A stretch of DNA of 63,185 nucleotides, counting the filler, from Dugesia japonica (taxonomy: Eukaryota): NCBI GenBank assembly GCA_001938525.1. It is 3 parts of 3 records of this genome, joined end to end, with 100 filler letters (N's around TTAATTAATTAA, not from the genome) between each part and the next. Parts side by side here need not be neighbours in the genome. Positions count along the whole stretch, not along the records: positions 28,160 to 46,074 come from MQRL01635298.1; 2 more parts are not named here. One strand, written 5' to 3'. Shown piece by piece: positions 28,060 through 63,185 of this stretch (positions within the stretch are counted from its first letter, which is position 1; every line of letters begins with the position of its first letter). The notes below the pieces were generated by a model. The model did not search any database. It was not told where the DNA came from and saw only the letters and a list, made by a program, of their open reading frames with translations. The translations under genes were made by a program, and so were the position numbers.

Positions 28060-28159
28060 NNNNNNNNNNNNNNNNNNNNNNNNNNNNNNNNNNNNNNNNN
28101 NNNTTAATTAATTAANNNNNNNNNNNNNNNNNNNNNNNNNNNNNNNNNNNNNNNNNNNN
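28060..28159. other. Artificial contig spacer
   Basis: 44 N + TTAATTAATTAA (stops in all six frames) + 44 N = 100 bp. Confidence 0.95.
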
Positions 28160-28194
28160 ATATAAAACAACCCTTAATGTCCCAGGGGTACAAG

Positions 28195-28510
28195 GGTTAA
28201 AATGCGAAATGCGAAATTTCATATTCTAAATGCGAAATTCTAAATGAAAATGAAATATCACATAAAATATAGCATAAAATATAGCATTAAATTATTAACA
28301 TTTTAAAAAATGAGATAATGAAATTATTAGTTAAAAATAATATCACATAAAATATAGCAGTGAATATAGCATAAATTTAGTAAAATAATTCTACTCTAAA
28401 AATATCACATAAAATATAGCAGTAAATATAGCAGTAAATTGTCACCATAAAATAATATAGCATAAAATATAACATTAAATATAGCATAATATCGCATAAT
28501 ATCGCATTTC
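28195..28510. repeat. Left subterminal minisatellite (AAATGCG; AAATATAGCA units)
   Basis: Directly visible upstream of the first ORF. Confidence 0.8.
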
Positions 28511-28529
28511 TAAATTTTTCCTCTATAAA

Positions 28530-29606
28530 ATGAATGATTCTAAAAATTTTTTAATAAATAAATACATAAGCTATAAAAAAGATAACCCACATTTAACTGA
28601 AAAAGAAATATGTCAAGAAATTAATACAACAGTTACAATGTTACATAAAGCATTAAGAGCTAACTTTTATAATATTCCAAGAAAAATATATCCTTTATTA
28701 CATTATAGTTATAACGAAGAAGATAAAACATTTGTAAAAGATAAAAATGGAATTTATTTTTTTAATGTTAAAATTAAAGAGTTTGAATTATTATCTAAAA
28801 GAAAAAAACCAGATTTAACTGATAAAAGAACCATGGCACATAAAATTAGTATAAGAAAAAAAACAAGAATATTAAATCCAACAAGTGCTGGGGGAACAAT
28901 TAAAATTGATAAGTTAAATGATAATNNNNNNNNNNNNNNNNNNNNNNNNNNNNNNNNNNNNNNNNNNNNNNNNNNNNNNNNNNNNNNNNNNNNNNNNNNN
29001 NNAAATGATAATAAGCCAAATGAAAATAAACAAAATGATAATAAACAAAATGATAAACAAAATGATAATAAGCCAAATGAAAATAAGCAAAATGATAATA
29101 AGCAAAATGATAATAAACAAAATGATAATAAACAAAATGATAATAAACAAAATGATAATAAACAAAATGATAAACAAAATGATAATAAACAAAATGATAA
29201 TAAGCNAAATGATAAACAAAATGATAATAAGCCAAATGATAATAAGTCAAATGATAATAAGCAAAATGATAAACAAAATGATAATAAGTTAAATGATAAT
29301 AAACAAAATGATAATAAGTCAAATGATAAACAAAATGATAAACAAAATGATAAGCCAAATGATAAACAAAATGATAATAAACAAAATGATAATAAGCCAA
29401 ATGATAAACAAAATGATAAGTCAAATGATAATAAGTTAAATGATAATAAGCCAAATGATAATAAGCCAAATAATAAACAAAATAATAAGCTAAATGTTAA
29501 TAAGTCAAATGTTAATAAGTCAAATGATAATAAACAAAATGTTAAAAATGAAATAGATAAGATATTTGAAGATATCATTAATTATAATAAGAAATATCGA
29601 AGATGA
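28530..29606 (+). CDS. Polinton hypothetical protein: HTH-like N-terminus plus long (NDNKQ)n repeat
   Basis: LTEKEICQEINTTVTMLHKAL is HTH-like; a mixed 12/15-bp repeat stays in frame; TATAAAATG start. Confidence 0.7.
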   Translation: MNDSKNFLINKYISYKKDNPHLTEKEICQEINTTVTMLHKALRANFYNIPRKIYPLLHYSYNEEDKTFVKDKNGIYFFNVKIKEFELLSKRKKPDLTDKRTMAHKISIRKKTRILNPTSAGGTIKIDKLNDNXXXXXXXXXXXXXXXXXXXXXXXXXXNDNKPNENKQNDNKQNDKQNDNKPNENKQNDNKQNDNKQNDNKQNDNKQNDNKQNDKQNDNKQNDNKXNDKQNDNKPNDNKSNDNKQNDKQNDNKLNDNKQNDNKSNDKQNDKQNDKPNDKQNDNKQNDNKPNDKQNDKSNDNKLNDNKPNDNKPNNKQNNKLNVNKSNVNKSNDNKQNVKNEIDKIFEDIINYNKKYRR

Positions 29607-29634
29607 AATAAATCTTAAAATTTTTCTTTATAAA

Positions 29635-30974
29635 ATGCTAGATTTAGATTATAATATTGAATTTCAACATACAGCAATTAAAAATGATATGCTTAAAATT
29701 TCACCTTCATCAGGTTCAATTTCAAATTTAAATGCATCCGGTGACATTGTATTCCAGTCTCTCCAATCAACAAATCCATTAGACATTTGCAATGCGCTAT
29801 TATACTTTAGAATTGAAATAACAGCTTCAGATAAAGATAAAATAACTCTCGAAAATAACTTCTTTCCAAGTTTATTTAAATTAATGAGATTAACACTCGG
29901 ATCCACACATATTGAAACAATCAACGATCCAGGAACAATCTCAACGATGTTAAATTTCATATCTACAACTGATACTTATAAAAAGGAACATGGTCAATTA
30001 TCAGGTTGGATGCCAGATATAAATAAAGGCAACACAGAAACTAAATCATGGGAAAGTAATCTTGGTTATTATAACAGAAAAAAATTATATTCAACAAATA
30101 AATTTGAAGGTTACTTTCAATTAAGAAATTTATTTGGCTTCTTACAGAATTACAATCGGTTATTATACAATACAATGATTGAATTTACATGTACTCGTCA
30201 AATACAAGATAAAATAATATTTTATGGTGAAGAAAAAACAACTGCAACATTAAAACTTTTAACCTTTGAACTTCACATTCCAGAAGTTAGATTANNNNNN
30301 NNNNNNNNNNNNNNNNNNNNNNNNNNNNNNNNNNNNNNNNNNNNNNNNNNNNNNNNNNNNNNNNNNNNNNNNNNNNNAAATCAAATCTTGATTCTGGTGG
30401 ATATTATTCAATTAAAATTAGCTCTTTAGCATATCAACCTAGATATATTTTAATTTGCATAAAAGATCCTGAAAATTCATATCAAAAGAATAATAATTTA
30501 TTCATACAAAGCACACATACAACAGAAAAAGAAAAATATACAGTTAAAGAAGGAACACCTCCAGCTGATGTAGAAAAAGAAAGAGATAAAAAAACATATT
30601 CATCTATAAAAGGTATCCAGTTACAATTAAATAATACTTATTATCCTATTAACGAATTAAGATTAAACATGGAAAATAATGAAATGGCATATCCATATTA
30701 CCAATATATTAAATGTTGTAATGAATTTCTAACAGAACCACAATTATCATTAATGGATTTCACTAATTTATATCCAATGTTCTGTTTCGATGTCAGTGCA
30801 CATGATGACAAAATGAATATTAATAATGTTGATGTCACATTGCATATTACAAAAGATCCTGATTTTCGCGGAATTCTTTACTGGTGCATTCTAGAAGAAA
30901 AGCATGTTGAAATGAAACTTGCTAGTAATAAAATTGTTTTAGTTGAAAATGTTAGAGGAGTTGATATAAAATAA
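29635..30974 (+). CDS. Polinton major capsid protein (double jelly-roll); spans an N gap
   Basis: NNFFPSLF, LRNLFGFL, ELHIPEV; after the gap PRYILIC, LQLNNTYYP, LYPMFCFDVS; ATG at 29635 in TATAAAATG. The frame change falls within the gap. Confidence 0.85.
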
Positions 30975-31250
30975 AAATTGTTTTAGTTGAAAATTGTTAG
31001 ATGTTGATATGAAACATGTTAAAACTTGATATGAAACATGAAACTTGATATAACATGAAATTGTTAGATGTTGATATGAAACATGTTAAAACTTGATATC
31101 AAATTGTTTTAGTTGAAAATTGTTAGATGTTGATATGAAACATGTTAAAACTTGATATGAAACATGTTAAAACTTGATATAAAATTGTTAAAACTTGATA
31201 TGAAACATGTAACTTGTTTTAATTGAAATTGTTAGATGATGATATAAAAT
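30975..31250. repeat. Intergenic minisatellite TTGATATGAAACATGTTAAAAC
   Basis: Multiple tandem and variant copies between MCP and integrase. Confidence 0.85.
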
Positions 31251-31261
31251 AAATATATAAA

Positions 31262-33159
31262 ATGTCCAATCCTAAGTTTATATGTGATTATTGTGGCAAA
31301 GTATTATTAAAAAAGAATAAGTCTCGACATTTAGATTTATGTGTTAACAAAGAACATAAAGCTGTTGGCGGAGATCTACAAAATTCAAGTTTTATATCTT
31401 CACTATTAAAACCAATTACAACAGAAAAATATCCAGGTGAACGCCATCTTTTCAAACATAATTACACTGGACCTGGAACACGCTTAGATATCCGATTAGA
31501 TTCCGAGAATAATCCGAATCCAGGAGAAGAACCTATTAATCAAGTTGATGAAGCCGCTTTGAAACATGACATTGCATATTCCAGTGAAAATATTGAAGAT
31601 AGACATATTGCTGATGTCCATTTAATACATGATCTTAATAATATTGAAAATCCAACTCTTCAAGAAAAATTTCAAAGAGCTCTTGTAAAATTGGCTATGA
31701 AAGGTAAGATCGTTCTAGGACAAGGAACGAGCAAAGTGAGCCACAAAGGACAAAATAAAGGGAGAAAAGATCCATTTAAAAAAACAACAATTTTAAAAGA
31801 TGAATCTGATAACGAAGCAGAGCGTAGCGAGGTCTTAGCCAATGAACTTCACCATGAATATAAAAAAACTAAACATTTTAGAAAAGTTATTGTTTATTAT
31901 AAAGATGAAATTTGGTCAGCCGATCTCGTATTTCAAGGCACAGAACGTAAAAATAAAAATGTGATATTAACAGTAATAGATCTCTATACCCGATTCGCGT
32001 TTATTGAATTAACAAATCAAAAATCTGGACCTAAAATAACAGAAGCATTTAAAAGAATTCTAGAAAAAAATAATAGAACACCTGAGAAACTCTGGGTTGA
32101 TGAAGGTAAAGAATTTTACAATCAACATTTTAAATCTTTCTGTAAAAAGAATAATATTGAAATGTATTCTACTCAAAATCAAGGTAAAGCAGTTGTAATC
32201 GAAAGATTCAATCGAACATTTAAAAATAGACTTTTTAAACATTTTACTTCCAGTGGATCTCAAGTTATCACACAACCACTACTAGATAAAATTGTATATG
32301 AATACAATAATCATATACATTCTAGCATTAATATAACACCTCAAGAAGCAACAATAAATCCTGAAAATATAGAAATCAAAATTCCAGAAATCTATAATGA
32401 AAAACCTAAATTTAGAATTGGTGAAAAAATAAGAATAACTAAATTCAGAAAAACATTTCCTAAAGGTTATACTTTTAAATGGTCNNNNNNNNNNNNNNNN
32501 NNNNNNNNNNNNNNNNNNNNNNNNNNNNNNNNNNNNNNNNNNNNNNNNNNNNNNNNNNNNNNNNNNNNNNNNNNNNNNNNNNNNNNNNNNNNNNNNNNNN
32601 NNNNNNNNNNNNNNNNNNNNNNNNNNNNNNNNNNNNNNNNNNNNNNNNNNNNNNNNNNNNNNNNNNNNNNNNNNNNNNNNNNNNNNNNNNNNNNNNNNNN
32701 NNNNNNNNNNNNNNNNNNNNNNNNNNNNNNNNNTTTAATGTTTAATGTTAAATGTTATTTTTAATAAATAGAAATGTCAGAAAAAGCAGTGTACATATGG
32801 AATAATAATATTACAAAATTTAATAATAAAATACTTCCAAATAATTTTAGATTATTAATAATTGGATCTTCAGGTTCAGGTAAAAATGTTTTATTAATGA
32901 AGATCCTACTGACACCAGGATTCTTAGATTATGACAATTTAATAATCTATTCTACAACAATTAATCAATTTGAAATTCAATTGNNNNNNNNNNNNNNNNN
33001 NNNNNNNNNNNNNNNNNNNNNNNNNNNNNNNNNAAGAAAATTTATATTATAACAAAAATCTATCACGAGCAACCTATAACATATCAAATCTCGAATCTTA
33101 ACGGCAACAAAATACTTGGAAGATTCTATACAAATGAACTTCAAAAGACATCATTATAA
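31262..33159 (+). CDS. Zn-finger / parvovirus-type PLA2 / rve integrase fusion (C-terminus at 33034-33159 displaced by gaps)
   Basis: CDYC-x11-H-x3-C; YTGPGT...DEAALKHDIAY...RHIAD; WSADL, VIDLYTRF, WVDEGKEF, IERFNRT, KFRIGEKIRI, FPKGY..W; tail KIYII...PITYQI..LNG..ILGRFYTNELQK*. Confidence 0.9.
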
Positions 33160-33321
33160 GGTTAAATGTTGGAATGTTAGAATGTTAGAATTATAAATGT
33201 TAGAATGTTAGAATGTTANNNNNNNNNNNNNNNNNNNNNNNNNNNNNNNNNNNNNNNNNNNNNNNNNNNNNNNNNNNNNNNTTTAATGTTTAATGTTAAA
33301 TGTTATTTTTAATAAATAGAA

Positions 33322-34365
33322 ATGTCAGAAAAAGCAGTGTACATATGGAATAATAATATTACAAAATTTAATAATAAAATACTTCCAAATAATTTTAGAT
33401 TATTAATAATTGGATCTTCAGGTTCAGGTAAAAATGTTTTATTAATGAAGATCCTACTGACACCAGGATTCTTAGATTATGACAATTTAATAATCTATTC
33501 TACAACAATTAATCAATTTGAAATTCAATTGTTATATCTCGGATTTGAATCTGGATTATCAAAAGAAGATATTAGTTTAATATTTGAACGCCAACATATA
33601 ATACCTAAGAATCTAGATACTCCAAATGAAGTTATTAAATATTTCATTGAAAAGAAACTTGTCACAAAAAAATCTAAAAGTATTAATATTACATTATCAA
33701 ATCGACCTGATGAAATTGTTTCATGTGACAAGTTATCAAGAGACAAGAAAAATCTTATAATTTTCGATGATGTTGTCAACGAGAAAAATCAACAAATCCA
33801 GAAATCTTATTTCACTCGTGGTCGTCATTCAAATTGCAATGTTATTTATATCTCACAAACTTATTATGATCTCGATAAAAATTCAATACGTAATAATTCA
33901 AATTGTTATATTTTCTNNNNNNNNNNNNNNNNNNNNNNNNNNNNNNNNNNNNNNNNNNNNNNNNNNGATGTAACATTATCTTCTAAACCTAATGAAATTA
34001 TTCCTTGTGATAAACTTTCAAAAGATAAAAAGAATCTAATTATATTCGATGATGTTGTCAATGAAAAGAATCAAGAAATACAGAAATCATATTTCACTCG
34101 TGGTCGACATTCAAATTGCAATGTTATTTATATCTCCCAAACATATTATGATCTAGATAAAAATTCTATACGTAATAATTCAAATTGTTATATTTTCTTC
34201 AAATTAAATAAAACTGATAAAAATAATGTTTATCATGAATTATTTTCAAATATCTTTAATAACAAATTAGATTATTATTATGAAACAAATCTACACTGGA
34301 AAACTAAATATAATTATTTCATCTTAACAAGGAAACTGATGAACTCTTAGATGATTTATTTTAAC
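33322..34365 (+). CDS. FtsK/A32-like DNA packaging ATPase (partly duplicated across gaps)
   Basis: IIGSSGSGKN (Walker A variant), LIIFDDV (Walker B), RGRH arginine finger, ISQTY; identical 5' copy at 32774-32983. Confidence 0.92.
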
Positions 34366-34519
34366 ATTAAATAATGATATATTTCAGATCCTTTTCTAAA
34401 TGGTATAAACTCATTTTGATTTGTTCTATTCCCATGCTAAAAGTCCGTAGGCTTTCCATTATATTCTACAAGTTGATGTGAAATTAATATCTTCCATTTT
34501 AATTGCGCTTGTGGCTTTT

Positions 34520-35653
34520 TTAATCATGCATATCTAATTCATGTCTAGATTCCTCTTCTATTGCTAAATTTATCTTCTTAGAAAAAAATATTCTAATTCT
34601 TTTTATTTCTTTTTCTATTGTTCGAAATGCCCAATTTGATTTTAATATTTCTGGATACTTCTCAGCGAAATTATAAAATTTTATCATTTTGTTTATATAA
34701 TTAATATTATAATGAATACCAATTTCACGTAAATGATTTACTTTTTCACTATTACTTTTAAAATAATTTTTTAACTGTTTAAGGTAAAATCCTAAATTAT
34801 AAATACTTATTAAAGTAATTTTTTTCCCAATATTATAATTATTATTCCAAATTAAAATATTTTCATTTAAATTTTCTAGATTAGCATTTTCAGTTCTCAA
34901 TGGTAATATTACACATATTGATTTTAATTCTGTTTCATTATTTACAAGTGATTTATAAAAATCACGAAAGAACTTAATATTATCTTCTATCATTCCTCTT
35001 TCAAGCATTTCAGGAATTTTTTTGTATTTTTCTATTATATCATCTGTATTCGTTATTTCAGATATTTCATCTAAAGTTTTATCACTTACATATCCACATT
35101 CTACATCTAAAGTTTTATCACTTTCATATCCACATTCAACATGTCCACATTCTACCTTTTGGTCTTTTGTTACTCTTACAACATGTATAATATCACCCCT
35201 ACAGTTTTTAAAATTTATAGTGTCAACATCACCCCTTCCTTGATATATCATCATGTCATCATATTCTATTTTATTATTATTTTTTAAAAATAAATCAAAT
35301 TTTTCTCTACAAATTCTGCATTGTATAATCATTTCCTTTTTATCAGTAAATAAAATAATATCATGTAAACATTTTTTTACATTTTTAAAATAATGTTTTA
35401 TATAAGCTAAATACACACTATATCTATTTTCTCTATGTAGTATAATAATGGACTTATTATATTTTTCAGCTTTCTTCTTATACGCTATTTCTGAATTTTT
35501 AATATCAATCAGTGTTAATAATATTTCTTTATTTGATTTGTAAAGAATCACTCGACCTTTATTTGTTTTAATATGTAAAAATTCTCCATTTCTATTTTTT
35601 ACTACACAATTTCCATATAATTTTTTAATTTTTTTTAATAACTTTTCCGACAT
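34520..35653 (-). CDS. Intact 377-aa accessory ORF of unknown function
   Basis: Uninterrupted; CxxC (CRIC), short VECGY repeats, helical C-terminus. Confidence 0.75.
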   Translation of the reverse strand: MSEKLLKKIKKLYGNCVVKNRNGEFLHIKTNKGRVILYKSNKEILLTLIDIKNSEIAYKKKAEKYNKSIIILHRENRYSVYLAYIKHYFKNVKKCLHDIILFTDKKEMIIQCRICREKFDLFLKNNNKIEYDDMMIYQGRGDVDTINFKNCRGDIIHVVRVTKDQKVECGHVECGYESDKTLDVECGYVSDKTLDEISEITNTDDIIEKYKKIPEMLERGMIEDNIKFFRDFYKSLVNNETELKSICVILPLRTENANLENLNENILIWNNNYNIGKKITLISIYNLGFYLKQLKNYFKSNSEKVNHLREIGIHYNINYINKMIKFYNFAEKYPEILKSNWAFRTIEKEIKRIRIFFSKKINLAIEEESRHELDMHD

Positions 35654-35775
35654 TTTCTTCCTTTATGGTTTTTCTTCCTTTATGGTTTTTCTTCCTTTAT
35701 GGTTTTTCTTCCTTTATGGTTTTTCTTCCTTTATGGTTTTTCTTCCTTTATGGTTTTTCTTCCTTTATGGTTTTT
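35653..35775 (-). repeat. 17-bp tandem repeat x7 (ACCATAAAGGAAGAAAA) abutting the ATG
   Basis: Plus strand TTTTCTTCCTTTATGGT repeated; variant also at ~38968-39010. Confidence 0.9.
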
Positions 35776-35958
35776 CGTGCTTGTGGCTTTTTTCTTAAGA
35801 AATAATTTAATCATACATATCTGTTCTCATGCGAACAATTTCTGGATATTTAAATCCTAAGTTTCAAGTTTTAAAATGTTAAATCCGACATGTTAAATTG
35901 TTAAATCCCAAGTTTTGATTTTAGTAGTTCATTAATTGTGCACTTTGTTCGGCTTCGC

Positions 35959-36563
35959 TTATATTCCTAGCTTAGCGCGCATTTCAGAAATAACTTTATT
36001 TTGATTTTCAAGTAACAGTTTTAAGTTGTTAGTGTCGGTCGCTCCGCTTGCTTTCTTATGTCCTGAGATCAACTCATGTACATCTGTAACCATCTTTTTA
36101 CTAATATTTAACTCTTCATCTGTTAAAATTTCATCATTAACTGCTTTCTGTTGAAATAAAAATAATTTATTTTTAACACATTCAAGTTTAGTTATTAATT
36201 TTGAATATCTTTCTTTTCGAGATTGAACAAATGAAGTGTTCATTGTTCCTATTACAGGTAACACTGAAATTGCTCCTGTTATAACTGGAATACCAACTGC
36301 TGTTATTGTAAGACCAACTGGAGTTATAAATATAATACCAGCTATTCCAATAATATCTGTGTATATTTAATTCCAGAATCAATTTTATTCCATTTCTTTT
36401 CTAATTTCTTATAATGTTTAATTTTATCTTTAATATAATACAAATCATTTTCAAAATCTTTAATTCTAGATAAAGCAAGTTTATTTTTTAAATCTTGAAT
36501 CTCATTTCCAGAATAATCATCATAACCTTTTGATAGAGTAGGATAAATATTATCAGGTTCCAT
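35959..36563 (-). pseudogene. Polinton membrane protein with two hydrophobic helices, split by one frameshift near 36355
   Basis: NIYPTL...RIKDFENDL...KKW, then IIGIAGIIFITPVGLTITAVGIPVITGAISVL, then KNKLF...NDEILTDEEL; homologue at 62490-63173. Confidence 0.7.
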
Positions 36564-38967
36564 CTATTTCTTATTAATATAAATTTGATAAATATAAAGT
36601 TTATCTGGAAAAGTTAATTCTATAAAATTTGATTTGTTATCAGGAATTAAATTTGTCTTGTCATAGTAAATTTTGTTATCTTTTGAAGTCACAAAATATT
36701 CATTTATAGTATTATTTAGTTTAATGCTATATTTAAAATTACCATCTACAGTGTGACCTACAAATCTAAAACCTGTTATATTTAATTCTGAATATGTTTT
36801 NATAGAAATAACAAATGGTTTTTCAAGATAAAAATAACCATTTTCTATTTTTCCTTTTCTTTTAAAATCTATTCTTTCTACATCTCTATTAATATAATAC
36901 CAAGGATATGTTACATTAAATATTTTAAAACTGAACATCTTAGTTTTATCATTTGAAATTAAATTACTAAATGGAATGTAATTATCAATTATTTCTTTTA
37001 TACTTTTAAGTCTTATTTCATCATTATTTGCAGAATATTCTTTCATTAAAGTATCAATTCTGTTAACATGAGATTTATGAAGATTTTTTTTTATTTTTTC
37101 ATATTCTTTCAACNAATTCATCTGGAATTTTAAATGTAATAATTTTAATATCTAAATTCATTAAAAAAATTCCTTTTGGTAACATTATTTCAATGTAAGC
37201 GATTTCAGCAACATTTAAAATTTCTTTGCTTTCACGATAAATATTCATAAGATTATCATTAGGTTTCACATATAAAAATGTTACTGCTTTATGGTTAATT
37301 TTAATGTAATAACTAAATTTTGGAACTTCACAGAAACCAGAAATACTTATTCCGACTTTATTTTTTAATTTTTTATGTAATTTAATAATTAAAATATCTT
37401 TAATATTAAAATAATGATCACTGAATGTTGTATGTTTAAAACAATCTTTTCTTGTAAAATCTAAATCATATACACAATCTTTATCAAAACTAAAACATGG
37501 AAGTAAATCATTTTTCTTTATTGGAATTATTGAAAATATTAGATATAGATCAGGTGGAAAGCTACGTCGGTCTGCGCGTAAATAAGGTAAATAATTATCA
37601 ATTAAATGTTTTATTTTTATAATGTTAAATGTTTCAGATATAATGTTAAATTTATCAATAAAATATTTATGTAAGTATGGTTTTATCTTATCAAATTCTT
37701 TAGTTATATCTTCATATTTTTTACTGTTATCTAACATTTCTCTTATGGCTTTATTATTANNNNNTTTAAATAATAAATCAATATTGTTAATTTGTTTATT
37801 ATTAAATTTTGGTTTCAGTGATTCATACTCTTCTTTTAATTCTTCAAACGTTTCTATTGATTCACTGATAACATTTATTTTTTGTAACCAGAATCCTTTT
37901 GGTAAAATTATTTCAATAGAATTTACTTTTGTTTCACTGATATTTGCTCTAAAATTAAAATGATTTTCTTCCGTAACATATGTAAATCCATGAATGTTAT
38001 TATTATTAACATTAACATTATAATAAAAGGTTTTAGATATATAATAATAACCGGTTATACTTACAACAGTTTTTTCATTTATCTTTGTGGTTAAATGAAT
38101 AGAAAAATCATTTAAAATATAAAAATGTTGATTTTCCATTATACCTTTTCTTTTAAAATCTAAATTGGTTATATATTTATCCATAACAGTAAATTGTGGA
38201 AGATCGCTTTTATCATCACAAAAAATTGAAAATATTATTTTTTTAGTATCAAGAAAAACATATNNNNNNNNNNNNNNNNNNNNNNNNNNNNNNNNNNNNN
38301 NNNNNNNNNNNNNNNNNNNNNNNNNNNNNNNNNNNNNNNTAAAACTTATATGTAGTTTTGGTTTTATTTTTTCATATTCTTTAAATAATTTAATTTTATC
38401 AATATTAATTGTATAGTAGTCAAAAGTTTTCTTGTCTAAATTATCATTTAATATCTCAATATCTTTTTTAATTTTCAATGAATCAAGCGTATCAGAATCT
38501 AATTCTTTTAATTTAATTAATAAATCACTTCTTTTATATGAAAAAACTGATAATTTTAGAATTTTAATTTCACTGAAGATTTTGTCAAATGTTTCTTGAT
38601 TACAGTTTTTTGTTAATTTTTGAATTTTAGTATTTAAACCTGAAATATCAACATTTAACACTTTTAATTCTGAGATTTTAGATTCTAAATATAACTTGTT
38701 AGCTGTAAAACTATCAACTTTTAATAATTTATTGAATATTATTTCATGTTTTTCTAATTTTTCTTCTAAAGATTTTATATATTTCAAATTAACCGCATCT
38801 TGTAGATCCTTGGGATCGTCTTTTATTTTTAGAAATGTTATAGAATCACCTGTTTCATTTACATATTTATTTTCAGCCTGAGCATCTAAGGTTCTAATTT
38901 TAGCATTTACATTTTTCAATATTTCTGTTGAATCGTTAGAATCAGCTGTTGCACCAAACTTATTCAT
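36564..38967 (-). CDS. Fibre/adhesin-like protein with three tandem diverged domains; probably one ~800-aa ORF broken at an ambiguous base (37114)
   Basis: KYVNETGDSIT and DDPKDLQDAVNLKYI (fibre-like motifs), a coiled coil, then 3x [KE(Y/F)(E/D)KIK..LH...FS...(L/I)DF.RK...(I)(S/T)G]. Confidence 0.65.
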
Positions 38968-38993
38968 CTTCTTCCTTTATGGTTCTTCTTCCT

Positions 38994-39431
38994 TTATGGT
39001 TCTTCTTCCTTCTTTTTTAATATTGAATTATAAAGATCTAACATTTCAGATATAATATTCCCGAAGGCGCTACGCTTTTCGAGTGAATATAAAAAATAAA
39101 TACATAAGATTCCACATATTTCAGTGTTAAAATGTTGCACTTGAATTTTATTATAAACTTTAGTAAATTTTTCAAGTTGATCTAAAGGTTTTAAACCAAA
39201 AGAATCAAAATAAAATCCTTTATGATATGCAACCCAATGTGTTCCATTTTGATTTGAATTTTGATAATTAAAAATGTAACATTTAGAATGTAAAATTTTA
39301 AATTGCTCATTTTTCATGTAAATCTCAAGAGGTAGATCTAAAAATTTAGCAATTGAATATAAATCAAAATTTGTTGTTGTGTTAATACCAAATGTTTTTA
39401 GAAAATCTAATAAACAGAATTCTTGTGACAT
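38994..39431 (-). CDS. Adenain-like (Ulp1/CE clan) maturation cysteine protease
   Basis: GTHWVA, YFDSFG, QVQ, CGILC give the His-Asp-Gln-Cys catalytic residues. Confidence 0.93.
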   Translation of the reverse strand: MSQEFCLLDFLKTFGINTTTNFDLYSIAKFLDLPLEIYMKNEQFKILHSKCYIFNYQNSNQNGTHWVAYHKGFYFDSFGLKPLDQLEKFTKVYNKIQVQHFNTEICGILCIYFLYSLEKRSAFGNIISEMLDLYNSILKKKEEEP

Positions 39432-39434
39432 TTT

Positions 39435-40211
39435 CTATAATCGATATTTACGTAGATGTGCTAAAATTGTAATTGTTTCTTGGTTAAAGTCGATGGTGTT
39501 AAAGTTTTCATCTACTATGTTAAATTTAAAATTGTCAATGTAATCTGTGTTAATTTTAGAATAAATAGGTGGAGATGGACGTTCTACTATTTTATATCCA
39601 AATGGAACTGTGTTAATTGGAAATGAATATAATAAATTAATTTTTTCTGTTTTTACATTGGTTGTTGCATAATTACCTTTAACAATGTTACATGTTACAT
39701 TTATCGCGTTAATATTTGAAATGTTAATTTTAGAATCTGAATAATAATCTCCAGGTTCATATTTTCCAGGTTTAAATCCTAGGATCTCGTGGAAGAATGA
39801 TTTAGAATCAAATGTTATAGTAACTTTAGTTTTAATGTTACATTTAGATGTTGCAAGGTCAGGTTTAATTTCTAAATATTTTTCTAAACGATTTGACATT
39901 TCTTTTACTTCATATGACCCTGGTTCCAAGGATTTTTCACCTGGGGTTATAACTTCATATTTTTCTTGTTGTTGTTGTTTTTGTCCTTGTGGTTGTTGTT
40001 GTTGTTGTTTTTGTTGTTGTTTATCATGTTGTTGTTTTATATATTTTCCTTCGGCATGAAATTTATTATTCAAACTGGTAATATTAAAAATAATATTGTA
40101 ACATGAAAAATATAACAATCCAAGTTCATATTCTGAATCTAATTTTATCGGGAAATCAAGATTAATTTTTAAATCTTGTTCTGTTCCAACTACTAAGAAT
40201 TGATGGGACAT
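39435..40211 (-). CDS. Minor capsid protein (penton) with polyQ insertion
   Basis: PIKLD.EYELGL, PGSYEV, INVTCNIV, PFGYKIVERP.P.Y, DENFNTIDF. Confidence 0.85.
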   Translation of the reverse strand: MSHQFLVVGTEQDLKINLDFPIKLDSEYELGLLYFSCYNIIFNITSLNNKFHAEGKYIKQQHDKQQQKQQQQQPQGQKQQQQEKYEVITPGEKSLEPGSYEVKEMSNRLEKYLEIKPDLATSKCNIKTKVTITFDSKSFFHEILGFKPGKYEPGDYYSDSKINISNINAINVTCNIVKGNYATTNVKTEKINLLYSFPINTVPFGYKIVERPSPPIYSKINTDYIDNFKFNIVDENFNTIDFNQETITILAHLRKYRL

Positions 40212-40247
40212 TTTGTTAAGATGTTAAATGATGAAATGTAACATTTC

Positions 40248-41165
40248 TCACTTAAAATATTTAGTTTTATATTTTTTATAAATAATATTAGATAATAAAC
40301 CTTTAGATTTTAATTGTTTACAGAGAGATTTAATTTCAGATCCGAGATTATTGTGTCCAGATTTTACAGCTGAAATTAATAATGTTAACTTTTCAAATAA
40401 TGCAATTGGATTCCTATCTTTATAACCATGTTTTATTCCTTTAGCTTTATAAATTTTTCTCTCTATAGGTTCTGACTTATCTTCTTTTTCTGTTGCATAT
40501 TCTGTATCATATTCAGTTCCTGATTCTGCTTCTGAATGTTTAGCTGTTCCTTCTGTTTTAATTGTTTTCTTTCTTTTTGTTTTGNNNNNNNNNNNNNNNN
40601 NNNNNNNNNNNNNNNATTTATTAACATAATCACAATTAGTTGGAAATGGTGATATAAATTTTAAATATGTTTCGATATCAGAAGGTGTTTCTTTATTATC
40701 TGGGTTTCCAAGGATTAATCTAAAAATTCCATCTGTGTATGGTAAAATTTCAGATTTGAATAAGAAATTTTTAGTGTTTTCTTCCTCAAATAAATAAATT
40801 TTATTTTCATTGAAAGTTATTTCCAGAAAACTTTTAATTTTATCAACCGCTATAATATCTAATTTAGAAAACTTAGGAGTAATTTTTTGGGTTAATTTAC
40901 CAGAAGTATCAATGTTATCAGTTGAATATATAGGTGCGAAAGGAAGTATTTTTTCATTCAAAAAGAATTTTGTTATATCTCTAGTTTCTGGTTTTAATAG
41001 TTCTTTTCCTGTTGCAAGTTTTTCAATTGCGGTGATTGTTGGTTGTTGTAAAGTTGACAAGTTAGATTGTAAAATGTTATAATCTTGAATTTTATGACAA
41101 TGTAAATTATTATATTTTTCACGAATGGTGATTAGATCATTTAATTCTTTAATTCTATCATGCAT
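40248..41165 (-). CDS. Polinton hypothetical protein, probably conserved core/PZ-like
   Basis: C-terminal LFEKLTLLISAVKSGHNNLGSEIKSL...L..KGLL resembles a motif I recall from Polinton uncharacterised ORFs. Confidence 0.6.
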   Translation of the reverse strand: MHDRIKELNDLITIREKYNNLHCHKIQDYNILQSNLSTLQQPTITAIEKLATGKELLKPETRDITKFFLNEKILPFAPIYSTDNIDTSGKLTQKITPKFSKLDIIAVDKIKSFLEITFNENKIYLFEEENTKNFLFKSEILPYTDGIFRLILGNPDNKETPSDIETYLKFISPFPTNCDYVNKXXXXXXXXXXXKTKRKKTIKTEGTAKHSEAESGTEYDTEYATEKEDKSEPIERKIYKAKGIKHGYKDRNPIALFEKLTLLISAVKSGHNNLGSEIKSLCKQLKSKGLLSNIIYKKYKTKYFK

Positions 41166-41194
41166 TTTTTAATGGTTTAATTTAAAGGTTTCCT

Positions 41195-41812
41195 TTATGT
41201 TTCATCATCTTCGGTTTCATAATCATCTTCGTCTTCGGTTTCAGTTTCAGTTTCAGTTTCATCTTCAAAACCTTTTCCTTGTTGTTGTGTATTATATGGA
41301 TTTAAATATATTCCTTTTCCTTTCTTAACTATGTGAGTTCCAGATTTAAACTTTTTAGTTAATAATTTAAATTTAGGATCAATGTTTTTTAAATATTTGT
41401 GTATTGCGGTTCCTTGATATGGATTTAGAAATATTCCTTTTCCTTTATGGTTTTTACCTTTAACTCCAGTTCCTGTTTTGTTATCGTTTAATTTTTGTTG
41501 TTCTACTTGTTTTTGTATGTCAAGTATTTCACCTTGTTTTTGTTTATTTATTTTTTCAAGAGCTTGAGCTTGGGCAGCTCTTGAATTAGCAACTGTAGTT
41601 GCAACACCAGATGCAATTCCAGTTGAAGTTGCTAAAGCACTAATTACCCATGGTATTGCAGCTAAGAATGCAAATCCACCTTCTTTGTGTTTTTTAACCG
41701 CTTCATCTTTAACTTTTTTAGAGATACAATAATTTTTACCGTTTATTTTTACTGATTTACATTTTCTAGAATTTATAATTTTAATTAATTCTTCTTCTGT
41801 TGCTTCTGTCAT
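41195..41812 (-). CDS. Adenovirus pX/cupiennin-like core/membrane-active peptide precursor
   Basis: KEGG-FAFLAAIPWVISALATSTGIASGV; repeated KGKGI[FY]LNPY; acidic tail. Confidence 0.7.
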   Translation of the reverse strand: MTEATEEELIKIINSRKCKSVKINGKNYCISKKVKDEAVKKHKEGGFAFLAAIPWVISALATSTGIASGVATTVANSRAAQAQALEKINKQKQGEILDIQKQVEQQKLNDNKTGTGVKGKNHKGKGIFLNPYQGTAIHKYLKNIDPKFKLLTKKFKSGTHIVKKGKGIYLNPYNTQQQGKGFEDETETETETEDEDDYETEDDET

Positions 41813-41834
41813 ATCTATTTTATATATTTACATT

Positions 41835-44800
41835 TTAGCATTTTACATTTTTATTTATTATGTCTAATCTCATATGCCAAATTAAACATGTTTCACAATA
41901 ACATTGATTTCCATGTGGCCATGTTGTTGTTGCGTTATCTTCGATTATTCTTTTATCAGAATAAGCTGTTAATGCTATTTTCTTTTGTGAAGTTAATTTA
42001 ATAATATGGAGTTCAGATTTTAATGAATAATTTGTTCCATAGATTATTTTCTTTGAATCTTCTATTATTGAATCAAATTCTTGCATTCTAATAGGATTGA
42101 AAGCTTGAACACCTTTATGTTTTTTAGATAATTTTACTTCGTTTGCTTTATCTATATATTCATATGCGTAAGATTTTGGTTTTATAAATACACATTTTAG
42201 AATTTCAGAATTTGGCATTTCATCTTTCATTTGAAAAAGATTATCACCAGTTAATGAATTTAGAATTTCAAGATTATTATCACCGATGATCTCTACAAAT
42301 ACAGAATCAGTGTCAGAATAATGAATTTTATAGTTATCTTTAACTGCTGGTTCTAACTGGTTATATACGAAATTGTACATTACTTCTTTAGCATATTCGA
42401 GAATAGTGAAACCTAGATATGGAAATTTATTATAATTTAATTTCGTTTTCATCATGTGAACTGCTGCAATTTTAGATGCAATTCCTGGTTCTAATTTGAA
42501 AGTTTTAGAACTTAAATATGTTGGTTTAGAAACTAGATTTTGATAATCTTCATCAGTTCCTACAATATGAACATTGCAACGATTTCTGATATTTTCTAGC
42601 GTTTTACCATAAAATGAATTATTCATATCTTTAAAGAAACTTACTCCAAATTCATCTTTATTTTTTTTAGCTAAAGATCTTTGTTCGATATTAAATAGAA
42701 TGTAATCTTTTAACCATGTAGATACTGACATTTTATATTTTGAATGTATCTTTTTTAATTTCATTCCTAATGAAAGATATAGATCTAGGGTTGAGCCTAA
42801 GATTATATAATTTTTCTTATCGAATTGATTCATTGTTAATTTTTTATTTTTATCTGATATTTTTATATTGAATGATTTTTGGTAATTACTTAACATATCT
42901 TGTGTAATAACTAAACTTTCAGGTGCTAATGGGAAATATTTAGTTTTATCATGAATTTCTCTTGGATATTCAAGATCAACTTCATATAGAAAATTCATAG
43001 TATCTGTTGCTGGTTCGTAATCTAACTCGTTAAATTCAATAAATTCACCTGTTGGAAGAGGTTATGTCATACAACTTGAATATAAAGAATTTGCATCTAG
43101 ATATTTTATATGTCTATTTTCCATTATATTTTCAACATTAATTTCTTGTTTTGAATTCATCATTTTTACGAGATTATCAAAATCTGATTTATTTAATTGT
43201 CTTGTATATGGATCTTTATTTTTATTATATGAAAACACTTGACGGTCACCTTCCTCACCAGAATAGCCACCACGTACTCCACGTTCAAATTTTAGAAAAG
43301 TATTATAAGTTTCTTTTTTAGCAAATTTTAGTTTCTGTTGTGAAAATCTCATTCTTGCTTGCCATGTTAAACCCGATGTGGTATAGCAATAACTTGGGTC
43401 TATTTTATAAAAGTCAAGACATATTTTTCTAAAGTTTTCTACGTAATCTGCTAAGATTAAAACATCTAGTTTCATATAGTGTAACATATAATTCCAGAGA
43501 TTTCCATGTATTTTATAATCATTTAAAAATTCTTGATATTCTTGGTCGGAGATTCCTTTTTGTCTTAGTTTAGAAAAGAAATCTTCTTTTGTTGGTGTTC
43601 TATTAGATTTTAATAATTCTATGATTTCTTCTGTATTGTTTCCTTTTATAAAGTCATATGGAAATGAGACTTTTTTAGGTTTTAGTTTGTATAATGTTAA
43701 TATTTCATGCTTTCCTGATTTAGAGAGTGTTTCACCCATTTTCTCGACTGTAGTTTTACATATTTTAAATGAATCTAGGAATCTAATATTTCCATAATTA
43801 AATGCTATATATTGATCTTCAGAATGTGGAATTATATTTTTTAGTTTACCCGGATCATTACATATAAGTTGTCTGAAGAATAAATGATTATCGTAACCCA
43901 TTGCATTGTGAAAGTAACATGGTATAAATAAATTTTGTGGTTTACATTCTTTGTGAATATAACCTCGAGGTTCTTGAGTTAAATAATTATAATCGAAAAC
44001 TGAATCTTTTAGAATTTGTCCGGAGGTCAGCGTAGCGATCGGTTGTTCACAATAGTAACATTTATTATTTACTGGTGGATATTCCCCGTTGTATGATTTT
44101 TCTATATTTTCAAATTTAATATTAATGTTATCAAGAAATTTTATAAATTCGTTAACTACATTTTCACCTGATGAATAATAATATTTACTTGGAATTAATT
44201 CTGGATAATCAGATTTTACATATATTCCGAGACTTATTGGTTCTTGAGTATTATCATGATTAGTGTAACATTCAAAATCGGCGTAGATTACAAATGGAAT
44301 TTTATTTTTAAAATAATAATTTTGAAATTTAAAATGTTCTTGATATGGAAATTTAACACTTATTGATTTATGATGTATACATTCTTCTTGATGTTTTAAT
44401 AAAACTTCATTAGAAGAATAAATATTCATACAACCGAGACATAACTGATTACCATATTTAATATTAAATAAAGTATGTACATTTCTAACTAGAATAAAAT
44501 GACTTTTATAAATTAGAAGGCTACATTTATTTTCTTCTGGTTCTGGTTTTACTGTGAAATGTTTAATGCGAATTGGTATAATTTTAGTATCTAATTCAAA
44601 AATATTTATCTTGTAATTATTTAATTTCTCGAAGATTTTTATGTCAGCGAGTTCAGTTGGGAAATTCATTCCTTGGATATTTAATTCTGGTAAATGTGGG
44701 GTATAATTAGAAACGCGTGTTGGATTTCGAAAAATATATTTATGTGCGAGAATTGAATATAGAAAGCATTTATCATCTTTATTTTCTATGTTAATAATTC

Positions 44801-45590
44801 CATATTTATTTTTCAATTCTTCTGGTAACTCTTGATAAGTATATGCGCCAGCTTTACATATTGAACCATATTTTTCAAATACTACTTTGTAACTGATTAT
44901 ATGTGACATGACCCAACCAGAACCTTCTAGTTCTTTATTTCGCATATAATTTTCTAGTCTTTCATATACATCATCTAATTTTTTAGGTATTGATGCTTTT
45001 GTGTAAATTTTCACACTTGGTACATATGAATAAATTCGCTTTGTTTCTTCTTCTCTTAAATACAAACATGTAACACCCAATTTGAATTCAAATCTAAAAC
45101 CTAGTTTGAAAAACTCTCTAACGACATATTCAATTTCTATTTCAAGTGGTTTTGTTGTTTCTAACATTCTTTCTTCTACATTTTTTATCATTATTAATCT
45201 ACTATTTAAATTGACATCGATATAATAATATTCTGGAAATGTTTCATAATTAAATACTTCTAGAATTGTTTTAGGTCTTGATCTCCAATTTTTATCTATT
45301 TTCTTTTGTAATAACAAATGTCGTTGATTTGTTAATTTATGTGCATTTATTAATTCTATGGTATCAAAATGCTTATCGCAGAGTTCACAATATAAATGTA
45401 TTAAATTACATTTAGTTTTTTTAAAATGTACATTTAACCCATGTTGAGTTCTAAATTTTTTATTGCAAATTGGACATGTTATATAATCATTTGGATTTAT
45501 AATTTGACATTTTCTAGATTCTATATGTGAATTTAATCCACGTTGATTTTTAAATATTTTATCACAGTTGGTGCATTTTAATGAAGACAT
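41835..45590 (-). pseudogene. polB: Protein-primed family B DNA polymerase, 1252 codons with a single in-frame TAA at 43062-43064
   Basis: Three N-terminal Zn fingers, EGSGW, YADFEC (ExoI), FHNAMGYD (ExoII), YMKLDV (ExoIII), YLDANSLY (A), KDMNNSFYGK (B), YSDTDS (C). The two ORFs are in frame: CMT*PLPTGEF...DTMNF. Confidence 0.93.
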
Positions 45591-45661
45591 TTGTTTTTTT
45601 ATCCTCTTTTATTATAATAAAATTTTAATCATAGTATATCGATTTCCTCTTTAATTACAGT

Positions 45662-45937
45662 ATAGAATTGTAGAATGTAGAATGTGAAATGTAGAATGTA
45701 GAATGTAGAATGTGTCATTGTAGAATGTGTCATTGTAGAATGTGTCATTGTAGAATGTGTCATTGTAGAATGTGAAATGTAGAATGTGACATTGTAGAAT
45801 GTGAAATGTAGAATGTGAAATGTAGAATGTAGAATGTGAAATGTAGAATGTGAAATGTAGAATGTGAAATGTAGAATGTGAAATGTAGAATATGAAATGT
45901 AGAATGTGAAATGTAGAATGTGAAATGTAGAATGTGA
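45662..45937. repeat. Right subterminal minisatellite (GTAGAATGTGAAAT)n / (GTAGAATGTGTCATT)n
   Basis: Directly visible upstream of polB. Confidence 0.9.
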
Positions 45938-46074
45938 CAATAACACAATTCCCCCAAGGTTCCTCGAACCCTAGGGGAATATGGGTTGTTTTTCATATAC
46001 TTATATGATATAATTTTTTGTGTGTTTTTTAAAGGTTGGTGGGTCCTTTTATATTAATTTTCCCGGCTTGGATC

Positions 46075-46174
46075 NNNNNNNNNNNNNNNNNNNNNNNNNN
46101 NNNNNNNNNNNNNNNNNNTTAATTAATTAANNNNNNNNNNNNNNNNNNNNNNNNNNNNNNNNNNNNNNNNNNNN
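46075..46174. other. Artificial contig spacer
   Basis: 44 N + TTAATTAATTAA + 44 N. Confidence 0.95.
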
Positions 46175-48906: not shown

Positions 48907-50138
48907 TACGTGGTAAAGCTTAAAAGTTTCTAGACTCTATCAGAAATATTGAAGATATTAATTAAAAATTTGCGCGTAAAATAATAATCAATATAGGTAT
49001 GAAATGTACGATTTATTTTAATATACTAATGTTTGTTTGCACTAGATTAGATTAATTCAAAAAAAGGTTCGATAATATTGAATTTCGAAGTGTGATCCAA
49101 TTTTTACTTATCAAGGAAATTGGCAAGACAGCAATTATTAATCATCTTCAAGATGTATAATGGTGAAGAAGCCTCATCTAAAGCAACCATTTATAACTGG
49201 ATTCGAGAATTTTCATCTGATCAAATAAGTGTTTTCGATGCAATCAAAAGTGAAAGACCTGTCGAAATTAGTGAAGAAATTACTAAAATATGGAAAGATA
49301 TTGTGACAAATGAACGAAAAATTACTCAAATGCAGCTATCTGAGAGTTTGAATGTATGCAACAGAACCGTTCAGCTGATTCTAGAGCAAATGGGAATCCG
49401 AAAGTTGTGTGGCAGATTCATGTCGAGATTTTTAACAGTTGAGATAATGGCTAGTAAAAATAGACTTTGAAAGGAATTTTTGTCTTCTAGATGCAGTCGG
49501 ACCTAATTTTTGTTTAATATAATAACTGCAGACGAGAGGCGATTGAGTATCTACCTTCCATATTCTAAAAAAGAGTCAAAATGAGAAGCCATCCCAGGTC
49601 TTGCGTCTAAGAATTTCACGCTGTAAATGTGCCATGTTGACTGTTTTTTGAAATGAAAAAAGAACCATAAAATCGGATTACTAAAGTAATCTCATACTCG
49701 AAACCCGAAGCATCCGATACAAGCCACACAGCCAAGATCTTTATTTGTTCCATGATAACGCACATTTACACATACAAAAAAACACAAGAAACATTATCAA
49801 AAGCTGGATTTGTGCAGCTGGATTATCCTCCATACAGTCCAGATATTGCATCTAGTGATTTCTGGTTGTTCAATCATCTAAAGAAATATTTCCGAGAACA
49901 TAGGTTTGTTTCAAAGGATGATATGAAGGATAATGTGACGAAATTCCTCATGCAGAAGGATCAAAATTTCCCTGAAAGGGACTTCGAAGGAATGGTCGAC
50001 CGCTGGAAAAAGTGCGTCAATGTAAACGGGTGTTATGTCGAGAAATGAGACCTATGAATGTATATTTATTGTTAATAAAAATTTTGTTGAGTTGACTTCA
50101 TTATTTCTGGAAGAGTCTAAAGACTTTAGCCATACGAT
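48907..50138 (+). mobile_element. Degenerate mariner element
   Basis: SKATIYNWIREF HTH, ITADE, HDNA, YPPYSPDIASSDFWLF, RWKKCVNVNGCYVEK; imperfect TIRs (AAAGTTTCTAGACTCTATCAGAAATA / TATTTCTGGAAGAGTCTAAAGACTTT). Confidence 0.88.
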
Positions 50139-51302
50139 CAGGGTTTCTGAAAATTCGTTTTTTTGAGATTCATCGAATCCGAATAACACTATTATACTAT
50201 TTAGCGAATCCCAATCGAATCGGAATAATAATAATTCTTAAGTATAATGTCTATCAATACCTTTAAATGTAAAATACTTATTAAATTTTATAATATGTAA
50301 TCAAGATGAGTTATTATCTTAAGCTCTTATATTAATACCTGACAAACTATCACTTTTAAAATTTTTCGTTTAAAATTCTATTTTTAACTGTAATAACGAA
50401 TTTTCAGAAACTTTGATAATTAAGCTTTCTTGGATCTATTAAATAAGCTCAATTTAAATTACAAATTTGTTTGTTTAAATTCAATTCATAACTGTAATAT
50501 AGGTTGGAATGATATGTAGTCAGTTAAAAAAATAATTCTTAATATTTAATCTTTTTTATTTAAATAAAAATACTTTAAGAATAACAACACGTTAATGTAT
50601 TTATCAGATAATCTAGACCGAATTTTAGTACAAAAATTCGAAGAAATAGTAAAAGCTCGTTCCGCATCAGTAGACGAAGGTTTGATTGTCAAAAGAGCAT
50701 TGTACATATTTTCCAAATTTAAAGTTCTTTTCCAGTTTTTGAAAAATCATAAATTCCTGCTGTAACATAATGAATTCACTATTGACAACTGGTTCAACTA
50801 AAGATTTTTCAAGATATCATCAAGTTCTTCTTTCATTTTCATTATTTTATCTAAATTTCTTGGTATTTTTTATTCAGTTTCTTTAGATACAGCGTTATTA
50901 TTTTCTTTTTCAAAATAAAATAATCTTTTTAGTAATTGTTCAGCTAATAAAAGTTGTTTCTCATATGAAAGAACATTTCTGCTTTTTAAACATTCTAAAT
51001 TGACTTTTAATATATTATTATTTTTATTATTTTAGTAGCCTATTAAAATTTTATAAAATTTTAAAACAATATGTCGAATAAAATTTATAACTTTTTATAA
51101 ATTTAATATTAATTTAATTACTCGATATTGATTCCGAGTAATGCAAAATTTTAAAAATTATAATAATTATGAAAGTCGATAATATTATATCTAATTATGA
51201 GTTGACTAATTTTACGAATAGTTTAACAAAAATAGCGAATATCGAATTCGAACTTTCATCAAAATTCGATTGAATCCGAATAATAAATTTTCAGAAACCC
51301 TA
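50139..51302 (-). mobile_element. Internally deleted hAT element at the mariner right end
   Basis: TIRs CAGGGTTTCTGAAAATT / AATTTTCAGAAACCCTA; minus-strand PSSTDAERAF at ~50651-50680. Confidence 0.8.
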
Positions 51303-52059
51303 CGTATATATAGTATTATGTTGAGATAATAAATCAACAAATGCTTGAGTTTGATAGTGATTTTAATTAATTAACAATCCAAATATATTATCGTTATATA
51401 TTGGTATTTATAGACCTTAATATGTTTATAATAGATATAATGATATCGTATAAATATACTATATATACTATATGAAATTAATCAAATCATGACTTAAAAA
51501 ATATTTTTTTTATCAAATATAATTGCGTTATACAAAGAAATTATTTTCTTCTACAGAGGAAACAAACTGTTGTATGGAATTTATAAGTGCGAATTTACAC
51601 TAAATTCTTACAATATTTATACTATTTTCAGACACGTGTGTCTGTTACATACATAATACAAAAATTTAAGAAAACAATTAAAATTTGCACAATATAGAAA
51701 AATTTCCATACTTTTTCTCAAAAATAATATTAATTTATAGAAATAATTAAATAAATCCACATTTTTCTACTGAGAAATTATTGATTTATTTGCATTTCCT
51801 TATTAAAATTGTGTTGCTATTATGATTGCTTTTCTTTTAATCCAACGTACAATTAAATAAGAATTAAATAAAATATTAAAACTACAGAATAAATTCGGCA
51901 ATCAAATAATAAATACAAAATAAATTTGATAACCAAATAATAAAAATATTTAATAAATAAAACTAAAAATAAGAGTTCAAGATCAGAAAAATGTCTGATC
52001 AAAATCAAATAATAAGAATAATGTTCTTGCAATTTTCTGATTAAATCTGAGTAAATTGG

Positions 52060-52323: not shown

Positions 52324-52356
52324 AATGTTATTGATTATTACGTGTTTCATGTTTTG

Positions 52357-62430: not shown

Positions 62431-62489
62431 GCATTTTTGATTCGTCTGTCGTTCTTTTTATTATCAAATAAATTTGGTAGTACACCTTA

Positions 62490-63173: not shown

Positions 63174-63185
63174 TCCAATATTATT

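Follow-up and report, generated by a model that had tools for sequence, protein, structure and literature searches.

The window analysed here is a 63,185-nucleotide stretch of Dugesia japonica DNA (assembly GCA_001938525.1) built from three scaffolds joined by linkers, and its middle scaffold (MQRL01635298.1) carries a Polinton/Maverick element in which a parvovirus-type phospholipase A2 (PLA2) and an rve integrase are encoded by a single open reading frame (ORF). With a probability of roughly 0.8, this scaffold represents a defective member, likely assembled as a mosaic, of a large and diverged Polinton family that is likely inherited chromosomally and bears the phospholipase-integrase fusion. 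The original prediction, made from the sequence alone, described a nearly intact virus-like Polinton with capsid and entry genes; Polintons with capsid, ATPase, protease and PLA2X are already well known, and the finding as first stated is ordinary. PLA2X consists of a parvovirus-like PLA2 and a pX-like C-terminus and is typical of Alpha-class modules (Starrett et al. 2021, PMC8502044). What is new here, as read from sequence, is that PLA2X is split, with PLA2 fused to integrase with catalytic motifs intact and the X half on a separate gene. No description of a PLA2-integrase fusion was found in the literature searched, and subscription papers, Repbase entries, figures and supplements may show it.

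The phospholipase-integrase fusion

The PLA2 and the rve core lie in one ORF with no gap between them. The PLA2 part (residues ~60-156; PF08398, E 1.5e-8) contains the YTGPG loop and the HD pair, and in the rve part (PF00665, E 2.4e-10) D221, D280 and E314 are invariant in 38 sequences. The PLA2 previously proposed as a separate protein is thus the N-terminal part of the integrase ORF. The last 41 residues of the integrase are encoded at 33034-33159, where the ORF remnant stops at an ELQK motif, as in its closest homologues, and the integrase ORF has no C-terminal chromodomain.

Homologue and locus searches were seeded with the fusion protein, and the shares obtained are not prevalences: the fusion is present in 96 of 120 homologues among the matches listed (245 were found), and in 19 of 46 PLA2-bearing ORFs in 89 loci. 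Because it recurs in both sets, the fusion is judged, by sequence comparison, not to be an artefact. The 96 fused homologues keep the HD..Y residues in 91 cases and all three DDE motifs in 82; a GG lies just before PLA2 in 38 of the 50 with enough upstream sequence, and 75 of 79 have a K..hG motif directly following PLA2. In an integrase-only tree (182 rows, quick IQ-TREE, duplicates and rows covering <170 profile positions excluded), the window's protein falls on a long branch within a set of 75 rows, 72 of them fused (SH-aLRT 97).

Fusion-type loci adjoin the major capsid protein (MCP; L016, L010, L052) and the ATPase, protease, X and penton genes (L001, L018, L022), and with these neighbours they are identified as Polintons. 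In L016, MCP is followed by PLA2-integrase; in L022, the cassette order X, protease, membrane protein beside the fused integrase is that of the middle scaffold, and L001 has the same genes. In L001, an IMG/VR contig, the fusion-type virion/integrase module occurs together with the other (DxxSLYP, canonical) polB type (L001:3-1400 and 3669-10259), a pairing that suggests module exchange.

The detached X half was found with a profile of seven stand-alone PLA2X C-termini, which has its sole match among 895 window frames there (E 9.7e-10) and also matches the X genes, likewise separate, of the fusion-type loci L001 and L022. Stand-alone PLA2X genes are present in L002, L004, L005, L007-L009, L053 and L064. 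The protein first described as having a pX-like helix is the X half of the known PLA2X. As PLA2 and X are halves of PLA2X, two of the four entry proteins first reported amount to one known gene, and the PLA2X accessory protein characteristic of group 2/Alpha adintoviruses is present, with its halves on separate genes. In L002:340-1338 and L009:471-1502, PLA2X continues into the protease without a change of frame, a further fusion within this module (L056 and L076 have sequences identical to these).

Proposed role of the fusion

The life cycle of an intact lineage can be outlined from the established Polinton/adenovirus model. The protein-primed polymerase pPolB would copy the linear genome, once excised, starting at its inverted ends; the A32 ATPase would fill the MCP/penton capsid; the C5 protease would process core proteins at glycine motifs and so release PLA2 and the amphipathic X helix to penetrate membranes; and the rve integrase would insert the genome into the chromosome. 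Adenain-type proteases cleave core proteins at such motifs. In parvoviruses, PLA2 functions during entry (PMC8502044, PMC5803895). In this lineage the integrase would be made as a PLA2-integrase precursor and, if PLA2 is a virion protein, would be carried in the particle; cleavage by the protease at the glycines flanking PLA2 would then release it, so that the incoming genome could integrate without new gene expression. Packaging of the integrase through its PLA2 fusion and release by the viral protease is a tentative proposal, to which we give clearly less than an even chance. The same caution applies to the broader possibility that a widespread, apparently undescribed Polinton clade packages a protease-cut PLA2-integrase precursor and that this genome holds a large family of it, possibly with live copies. 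If true, the particle would carry both a membrane-breaching enzyme and an integrase, as retroviruses carry theirs.

Two observations weigh against packaging: gene adjacency alone can yield fusions, and the glycine motifs also flank stand-alone PLA2X and are therefore inherited, not specific to the fusion. That the fusion is a passive outcome of adjacency, with no role in delivering integrase in particles, has nearly an even chance of being correct. A lone PLA2 gene lies directly upstream of integrase in L027, L039 and L057, a plausible intermediate toward fusion, and the fusion label changes 11 times on the integrase tree (at least six changes forced by well-supported branches, some of the 11 from truncated or broken genes), indicating that the fusion is easily gained or lost. 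Repeated origin can equally mean selection, however, and the supported 75-row set keeps the fusion with both active sites intact in integrases ~40-55% identical to that of the window.

Gene content and layout

Positions 28160-46074 are one entire scaffold of 17,915 bp between linkers N44-TTAATTAATTAA-N44 (28060-28159 and 46075-46174), with 12 N runs (687 N in total), ~17-29% GC per kb and a coding density of 86%. The plus-strand block (ORF1, MCP, the PLA2+rve ORF and the A32 ATPase) and the minus-strand block (polB, X, ORF305, the minor capsid protein mCP, protease, repeat protein, membrane protein and ORF377) converge as predicted, with the junction at 34350/34520. The predicted set of pPolB, integrase, ATPase, protease, MCP and mCP is present in full by Pfam, motif and fold evidence (Table 1). 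It is the canonical Polinton set (PMC4028283), and the scaffold is supported as a Polinton/Maverick with a full morphogenesis module.

Table 1. Features of the Polinton scaffold, in window coordinates
Positions	Strand	Feature	Evidence
28164-28245	.	Left inverted-repeat remnant, GC-rich hairpin	Inverted alignment with 45911-45992
28200-28507	.	Left subterminal 10-14-bp tandem arrays	Repeat scan
28530-29606	+	ORF1, 358 aa, long N/D/K/Q-rich repeat, no family match	ORF and profile scans
29635-30974	+	MCP (double jelly roll), its reading frame differing on either side of an 83-N gap of estimated size (30295-30377)	PF21738
30930-31210	.	22-bp intergenic tandem array	Repeat scan
31262-33159	+	PLA2-integrase fusion: Zn-knuckle-like start, parvovirus-type PLA2, rve core, without chromodomain	Pfam, alignment
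32734-32983	+	250-bp exact copy of the ATPase 5' end (33282-33531), set between two N gaps inside the integrase tail	Self-comparison
33322-34350	+	A32/FtsK packaging ATPase: Walker A GSSGSGKN, Walker B IIFDD, RGRH	PF04665 (Pox_A32) E 7e-15, motifs
34520-35653	-	ORF377, no family match	ORF, profile and loci scans
35959-36563	-	Membrane protein, frameshifted near 36355	Hydrophobicity, syntenic relatives
36564-38967	-	Lineage-specific repeat protein spanning two ORFs, with three repeats of ~180 aa	Self-repeats, position
38994-39431	-	C5/adenain-type maturation protease; His65, Asp76, Gln99, Cys106 present	PF00770, loci matches
39435-40211	-	Minor capsid (penton), single jelly roll	Predicted structure, fold search
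40248-41165	-	ORF305, weakly conserved Polinton gene adjoining penton in relatives	8 loci ORFs, E 3e-4 to 0.03
41195-41812	-	Detached X half of PLA2X: GG, then amphipathic/hydrophobic helix, GKGIxLNPY motifs	Profile search
41835-45590	-	pPolB: N-terminal C2H2 fingers, vOTU-like Cys/His motifs, Exo I-III, degenerate EndoVII/HNH insert, Pol A-C	Homologue alignment, motifs
45663-45937	.	Right subterminal 7/14-bp tandem array	Repeat scan
45911-45992	.	Right inverted-repeat remnant, strong GC-rich hairpin	Inverted alignment with 28164-28245

With its internal stop read as X, polB has complete exonuclease and polymerase motifs, and Exo I-III, Pol A-C and KxY align with those of homologues (n=233, many with PF03175); the named relatives are from insects and one coral, at 27-34% identity. 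Its endonuclease-VII-like insert retains the cysteines and has lost the DH..H and N residues usual in homologues. It also carries Cys and His motifs resembling a vOTU site, which we infer to be the site described in PMC11161782. For MCP, PF21738 scores above cut-off on both halves, which match a single ORF in L016. The protease scores below cut-off against Peptidase_C5 (E 0.0015) and matches 22 loci ORFs (best E 9e-25). A model of mCP built from 12 sequences (pLDDT 78) resembles the mavirus penton (Z 11.5, rmsd 12.4 over 208), a PBCV-1 capsid chain (Z 11.1, rmsd 3.0 over 120), a Sputnik chain (Z 10.6) and viral minor capsids in BFVD (E 1e-11), and in this predicted structure the penton-like fold is confirmed. 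Sequence searches of the PDB returned nothing significant for the C-terminal half of polB, the mCP profile or PLA2-integrase, and a viral scan gave 0 relatives from a single-sequence query and 9 from an alignment query.

The remaining two candidate entry proteins fared differently. The proposed two-transmembrane protein has a ~42-residue hydrophobic stretch, with room for two helices, and has syntenic relatives. We take it to resemble, possibly, Starrett's GasderminX class. The name 'fibre-like' is unconfirmed, with position as its one support: the repeat protein holds the place of the fibre-like gene in L001/L022. Its single-sequence model is unusable (pLDDT 30.8), and one of its repeats had 0 homologues among 1.84 billion protein representatives. 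Compared with the syntenic gene of L022 it showed no significant similarity (best E 0.025), and its Atlas matches to beta-sandwich/carbohydrate-binding-module clusters at 0.82-0.84 are leads only. A 17-bp unit is repeated directly upstream of the start codons of both ORF377 (35653-35776, 7.3 copies) and the repeat protein (38967-39011, 2.6 copies), and this shared unit is a candidate common promoter or leader motif.

Lesions, termini and assembly

The description 'nearly intact' was overstated, given the internal polB stop, the frameshifted membrane gene and the inverted ends, ~65% alike. The polB TAA noted at the outset is real, lying in frame at 43062-43064 just after motif A, without N nearby; both polB halves are in one protein in 113 of 120 homologues among the matches listed (two-half BLAST test), and the scaffold's copy, as assembled, is predicted to be unable to make a full-length polymerase. 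The frameshift at ~36355 is likewise real as assembled, and L022, L029 and L035 have both halves of the membrane gene in one ORF. Further breaks, missed at first, affect MCP (the frame shift across its N gap), the integrase C-terminus (gaps 32485-32733 and 32984-33033), the repeat protein and the ATPase. The repeat-protein frame is broken at an N at 37114, where family contigs mostly differ from the window, and this break may therefore be an assembly error or private to the scaffold's copy. The suspected lesion at the ATPase 3' end is plausible, the last ~20 of 236 profile positions being unmatched.

The ATPase gene also contains two 226-bp versions of one region (33691-33916 and 33973-34198), 86% alike, flanking a 50-N gap. 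With 31 differing sites (dS 0.78, dN 0.055 over 75 codons; dN/dS 0.07), the versions probably represent two long-separated functional copies joined by the scaffolder. The halves of the scaffold may therefore come from different insertions, and the scaffold is probably a mosaic of family copies; evidence of a chimera of divergent copies, an outcome named beforehand as counting against the original prediction, is thus found in the ATPase versions across the gap. The purifying selection between these versions indicates that the family was a replicating lineage. The 250-bp duplicate of the ATPase 5' end inside the integrase tail is likely a scaffolding artefact.

Self-comparison found no long terminal inverted repeat in the scaffold, and a diverged inverted remnant was found at both ends instead. 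The ends are ~65% alike over 83 columns, with 24 of the first 32 columns matching; the alignment scores higher than 1000/1000 shuffles and than every other one of 1662 control windows. The scaffold probably stops within the element termini. The absence of a clear host flank noted earlier holds, and is explained by the construction of the window from joined scaffolds, since the predicted coordinates are precisely one scaffold between linkers.

Copy number, expression and alternative readings

Eight DNA-type runs from three studies share scaffold sequence (6-26% of sampled words each), and no RNA run is on record among the runs listed as sharing scaffold sequence words. Contigs from two DNA runs of different studies (X1 and X2; samples of 2015 and 2025), matched at 85% likeness, and reads from two RNA runs were mapped on 35800-45640 (9.8 kb). 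The region received 24,623 contigs from X1 and 27,237 from X2. By likeness, the X1 contigs comprise 2,515 at >=99%, 5,507 at 95-99%, 10,730 at 90-95% and 5,871 below 90%, and the four listed difference-free pieces have a depth of 4.6-7.1. These data suggest tens to hundreds or more diverged family copies, with the scaffold's own sequence at about single-copy level. Many diverged contigs together with exact pieces at about single-copy depth fit an inherited family, and not one replicating episome. The choice between integrated and episomal states, which the original prediction had left undecided, is largely settled toward many inherited chromosomal copies, as judged from the DNA runs with no junction seen.

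The RNA runs gave 12 of 10.5 million reads (X9) and 149 of 13.6 million (X10), from 6% and 25% of the runs. All 161 are partial matches, three of them at >=95%, and no full-length RNA read was found on the mapped region in these two libraries, where the scaffold's copy appears silent. With its stop and frameshift and this RNA result, the scaffold's copy shows neither open core genes nor transcription of the mapped region. The earlier claim that it was recently active and able to form infectious particles is unsupported for this copy; the lesions, diverged termini, signs of chimeric assembly, contig likeness of mostly 85-95% and lack of full-length RNA reads all speak against recent activity.

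Several points weigh against a defective member of an inherited family. The mapped region leaves out MCP, integrase and ATPase, and the X1 contigs at >=99% (2,515/24,623) could include young copies. Summed contig depth per bin (675-54,221 in X1; 1,170-80,578 in X2) is inflated by overlapping short contigs and is not copy number. The 25 near-fixed contig differences fall at third codon positions in 12 cases (p 0.14), and the listed differences include neither the polB stop nor the 36355 frameshift, each of which may or may not be private to this copy. No host junction, target-site duplication (TSD) or true terminus was seen in the scaffold, which ends at linkers.

It is unlikely, although worth weighing, that the family is currently active, with intact copies elsewhere making virions and reinfecting or reinserting, and with the scaffold's lesions partly assembly errors. 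The complete catalytic motifs, the 86% coding density, the low dN/dS between ATPase versions, the 10% of X1 contigs at >=99% and the differences of most family contigs from the window at 37114 are consistent with such activity, against which stand the 85-95% likeness of most contigs, the uniformly partial X9/X10 RNA reads (3/161 at >=95%) and the diverged termini. Vertebrate genomes with hundreds of Mavericks can, moreover, have defective ones only (PMC8097293), and no Maverick-Polinton virions are reported to have been seen (10.64898/2026.06.19.733378).

Less probable still is that the scaffold is one genuine copy, its ATPase duplication a true recombination of two old family members within the element. 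Gene order is coherent across the ATPase junction, and the hairpins at both termini are related; against this, the duplication falls exactly across a 50-N gap, a size found seven times in the window, the second, exact duplicate (250 bp) also flanks gaps, and the homologous ATPases contain a single Walker B region. A virus of the host or of a contaminant, episomal or exogenous and co-assembled with the genome, would account for the missing host flank and for the close relatives of the fusion protein in environmental metagenomes, and is nevertheless very improbable given the thousands of diverged variants and exact pieces at about single-copy depth in 2015 and 2025 runs of different studies, the older broken relatives on both other scaffolds beside host-type genes and transposons, and the nonsense and frameshift lesions.

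Neighbouring sequences in the window

The left scaffold contains a broken MCP of a related Polinton (3565-4109, minus strand; 74% nucleotide identity and dN/dS 0.35 against the MCP of the middle scaffold), adjoining LTR-type reverse-transcriptase/gag-like fragments. The PP1, transposase and reverse-transcriptase sequences beside the Polinton scaffold mark the source as a short-read assembly of a eukaryote. A second, multiply frameshifted Polinton relic (58556-63185, minus strand) has a polB (58556-61694) at 33-54% amino-acid identity with a less degenerate endonuclease VII motif, upstream zinc fingers and a membrane-protein gene. Other features are a divergent PP1 catalytic subunit gene with introns (5576-6420, plus strand; best database match 81%, others 73-78%, from mixed sources), a broken hAT transposase (11149-12869, plus strand; PF05699), a mariner-like transposase fragment (49096-50048, plus strand), an inverted-repeat element with A/T-tract foldback-like arms (14737-15509) and a MITE-like element (50138-52324) with 201-nt arms, 93% complementary and 1.8 kb apart. 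Rfam gave no match.

Significance and comparison with known systems

The interest of the fusion lies in the fact that Polinton particles have yet to be observed and that integrase may either arrive with the particle or be made after entry. An in-frame fusion that joins integrase to what is presumably a virion entry protein, conserved with both active sites across dozens of diverged relatives, is indirect evidence for integrase-carrying extracellular particles, and it offers a biochemical handle in precursor cleavage and PLA2 activity. piRNA silencing of Polintons has been described in planarians (PMC8532177), and the very high abundance of this family, together with the many public RNA datasets for the genome, makes its silencing by the host testable.

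The element resembles the group 2/Alpha (Mayetiola-class) adintoviruses (PMC8502044) in its pPolB with OTU-like motifs, rve integrase, FtsK/A32 ATPase, adenain, hexon, penton, parvovirus-like PLA2, pX-like helix and size class of 15-20 kb, a placement that rests on gene content and not on a tree with reference sequences. Phospholipase is common in group 2 (10.64898/2026.06.19.733378). Unlike the Alpha adintoviruses, in which PLA2X is one stand-alone gene, the element here has PLA2 fused to integrase and X separate; its integrase also lacks the C-terminal chromodomain that is called distinctive for adintoviruses (PMC11071296).

Sf-Maverick 1 and 2 of Spodoptera cells (Geisler 2018, PMC5803895) likewise have a PolB with an endonuclease VII insert, integrase, ATPase, protease and a parvovirus-like PLA2 in which the catalytic and Ca-binding residues are present. 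In these elements a small ORF of its own encodes PLA2 ('CAP'), and the integrase carries a chromodomain; in the element here the EndoVII motif is degenerate. Like the vertebrate Mavericks (Barreat and Katzourakis 2021, PMC8097293), the family is endogenous and multi-copy, with core genes under purifying selection and many defective members; for the vertebrate elements intact copies with termini have been shown, whereas the scaffold here shows neither true termini nor a TSD.

In the packaging reading of the fusion, the closest parallel would be retroviral Gag-Pol, in which an rve integrase is part of a precursor with a virion protein and is released by the viral protease. Unlike Gag-Pol, the Polinton arrangement would involve a double-stranded DNA virus with a jelly-roll capsid, a cysteine protease and a phospholipase as the carrier, with packaging and cleavage as predicted steps.

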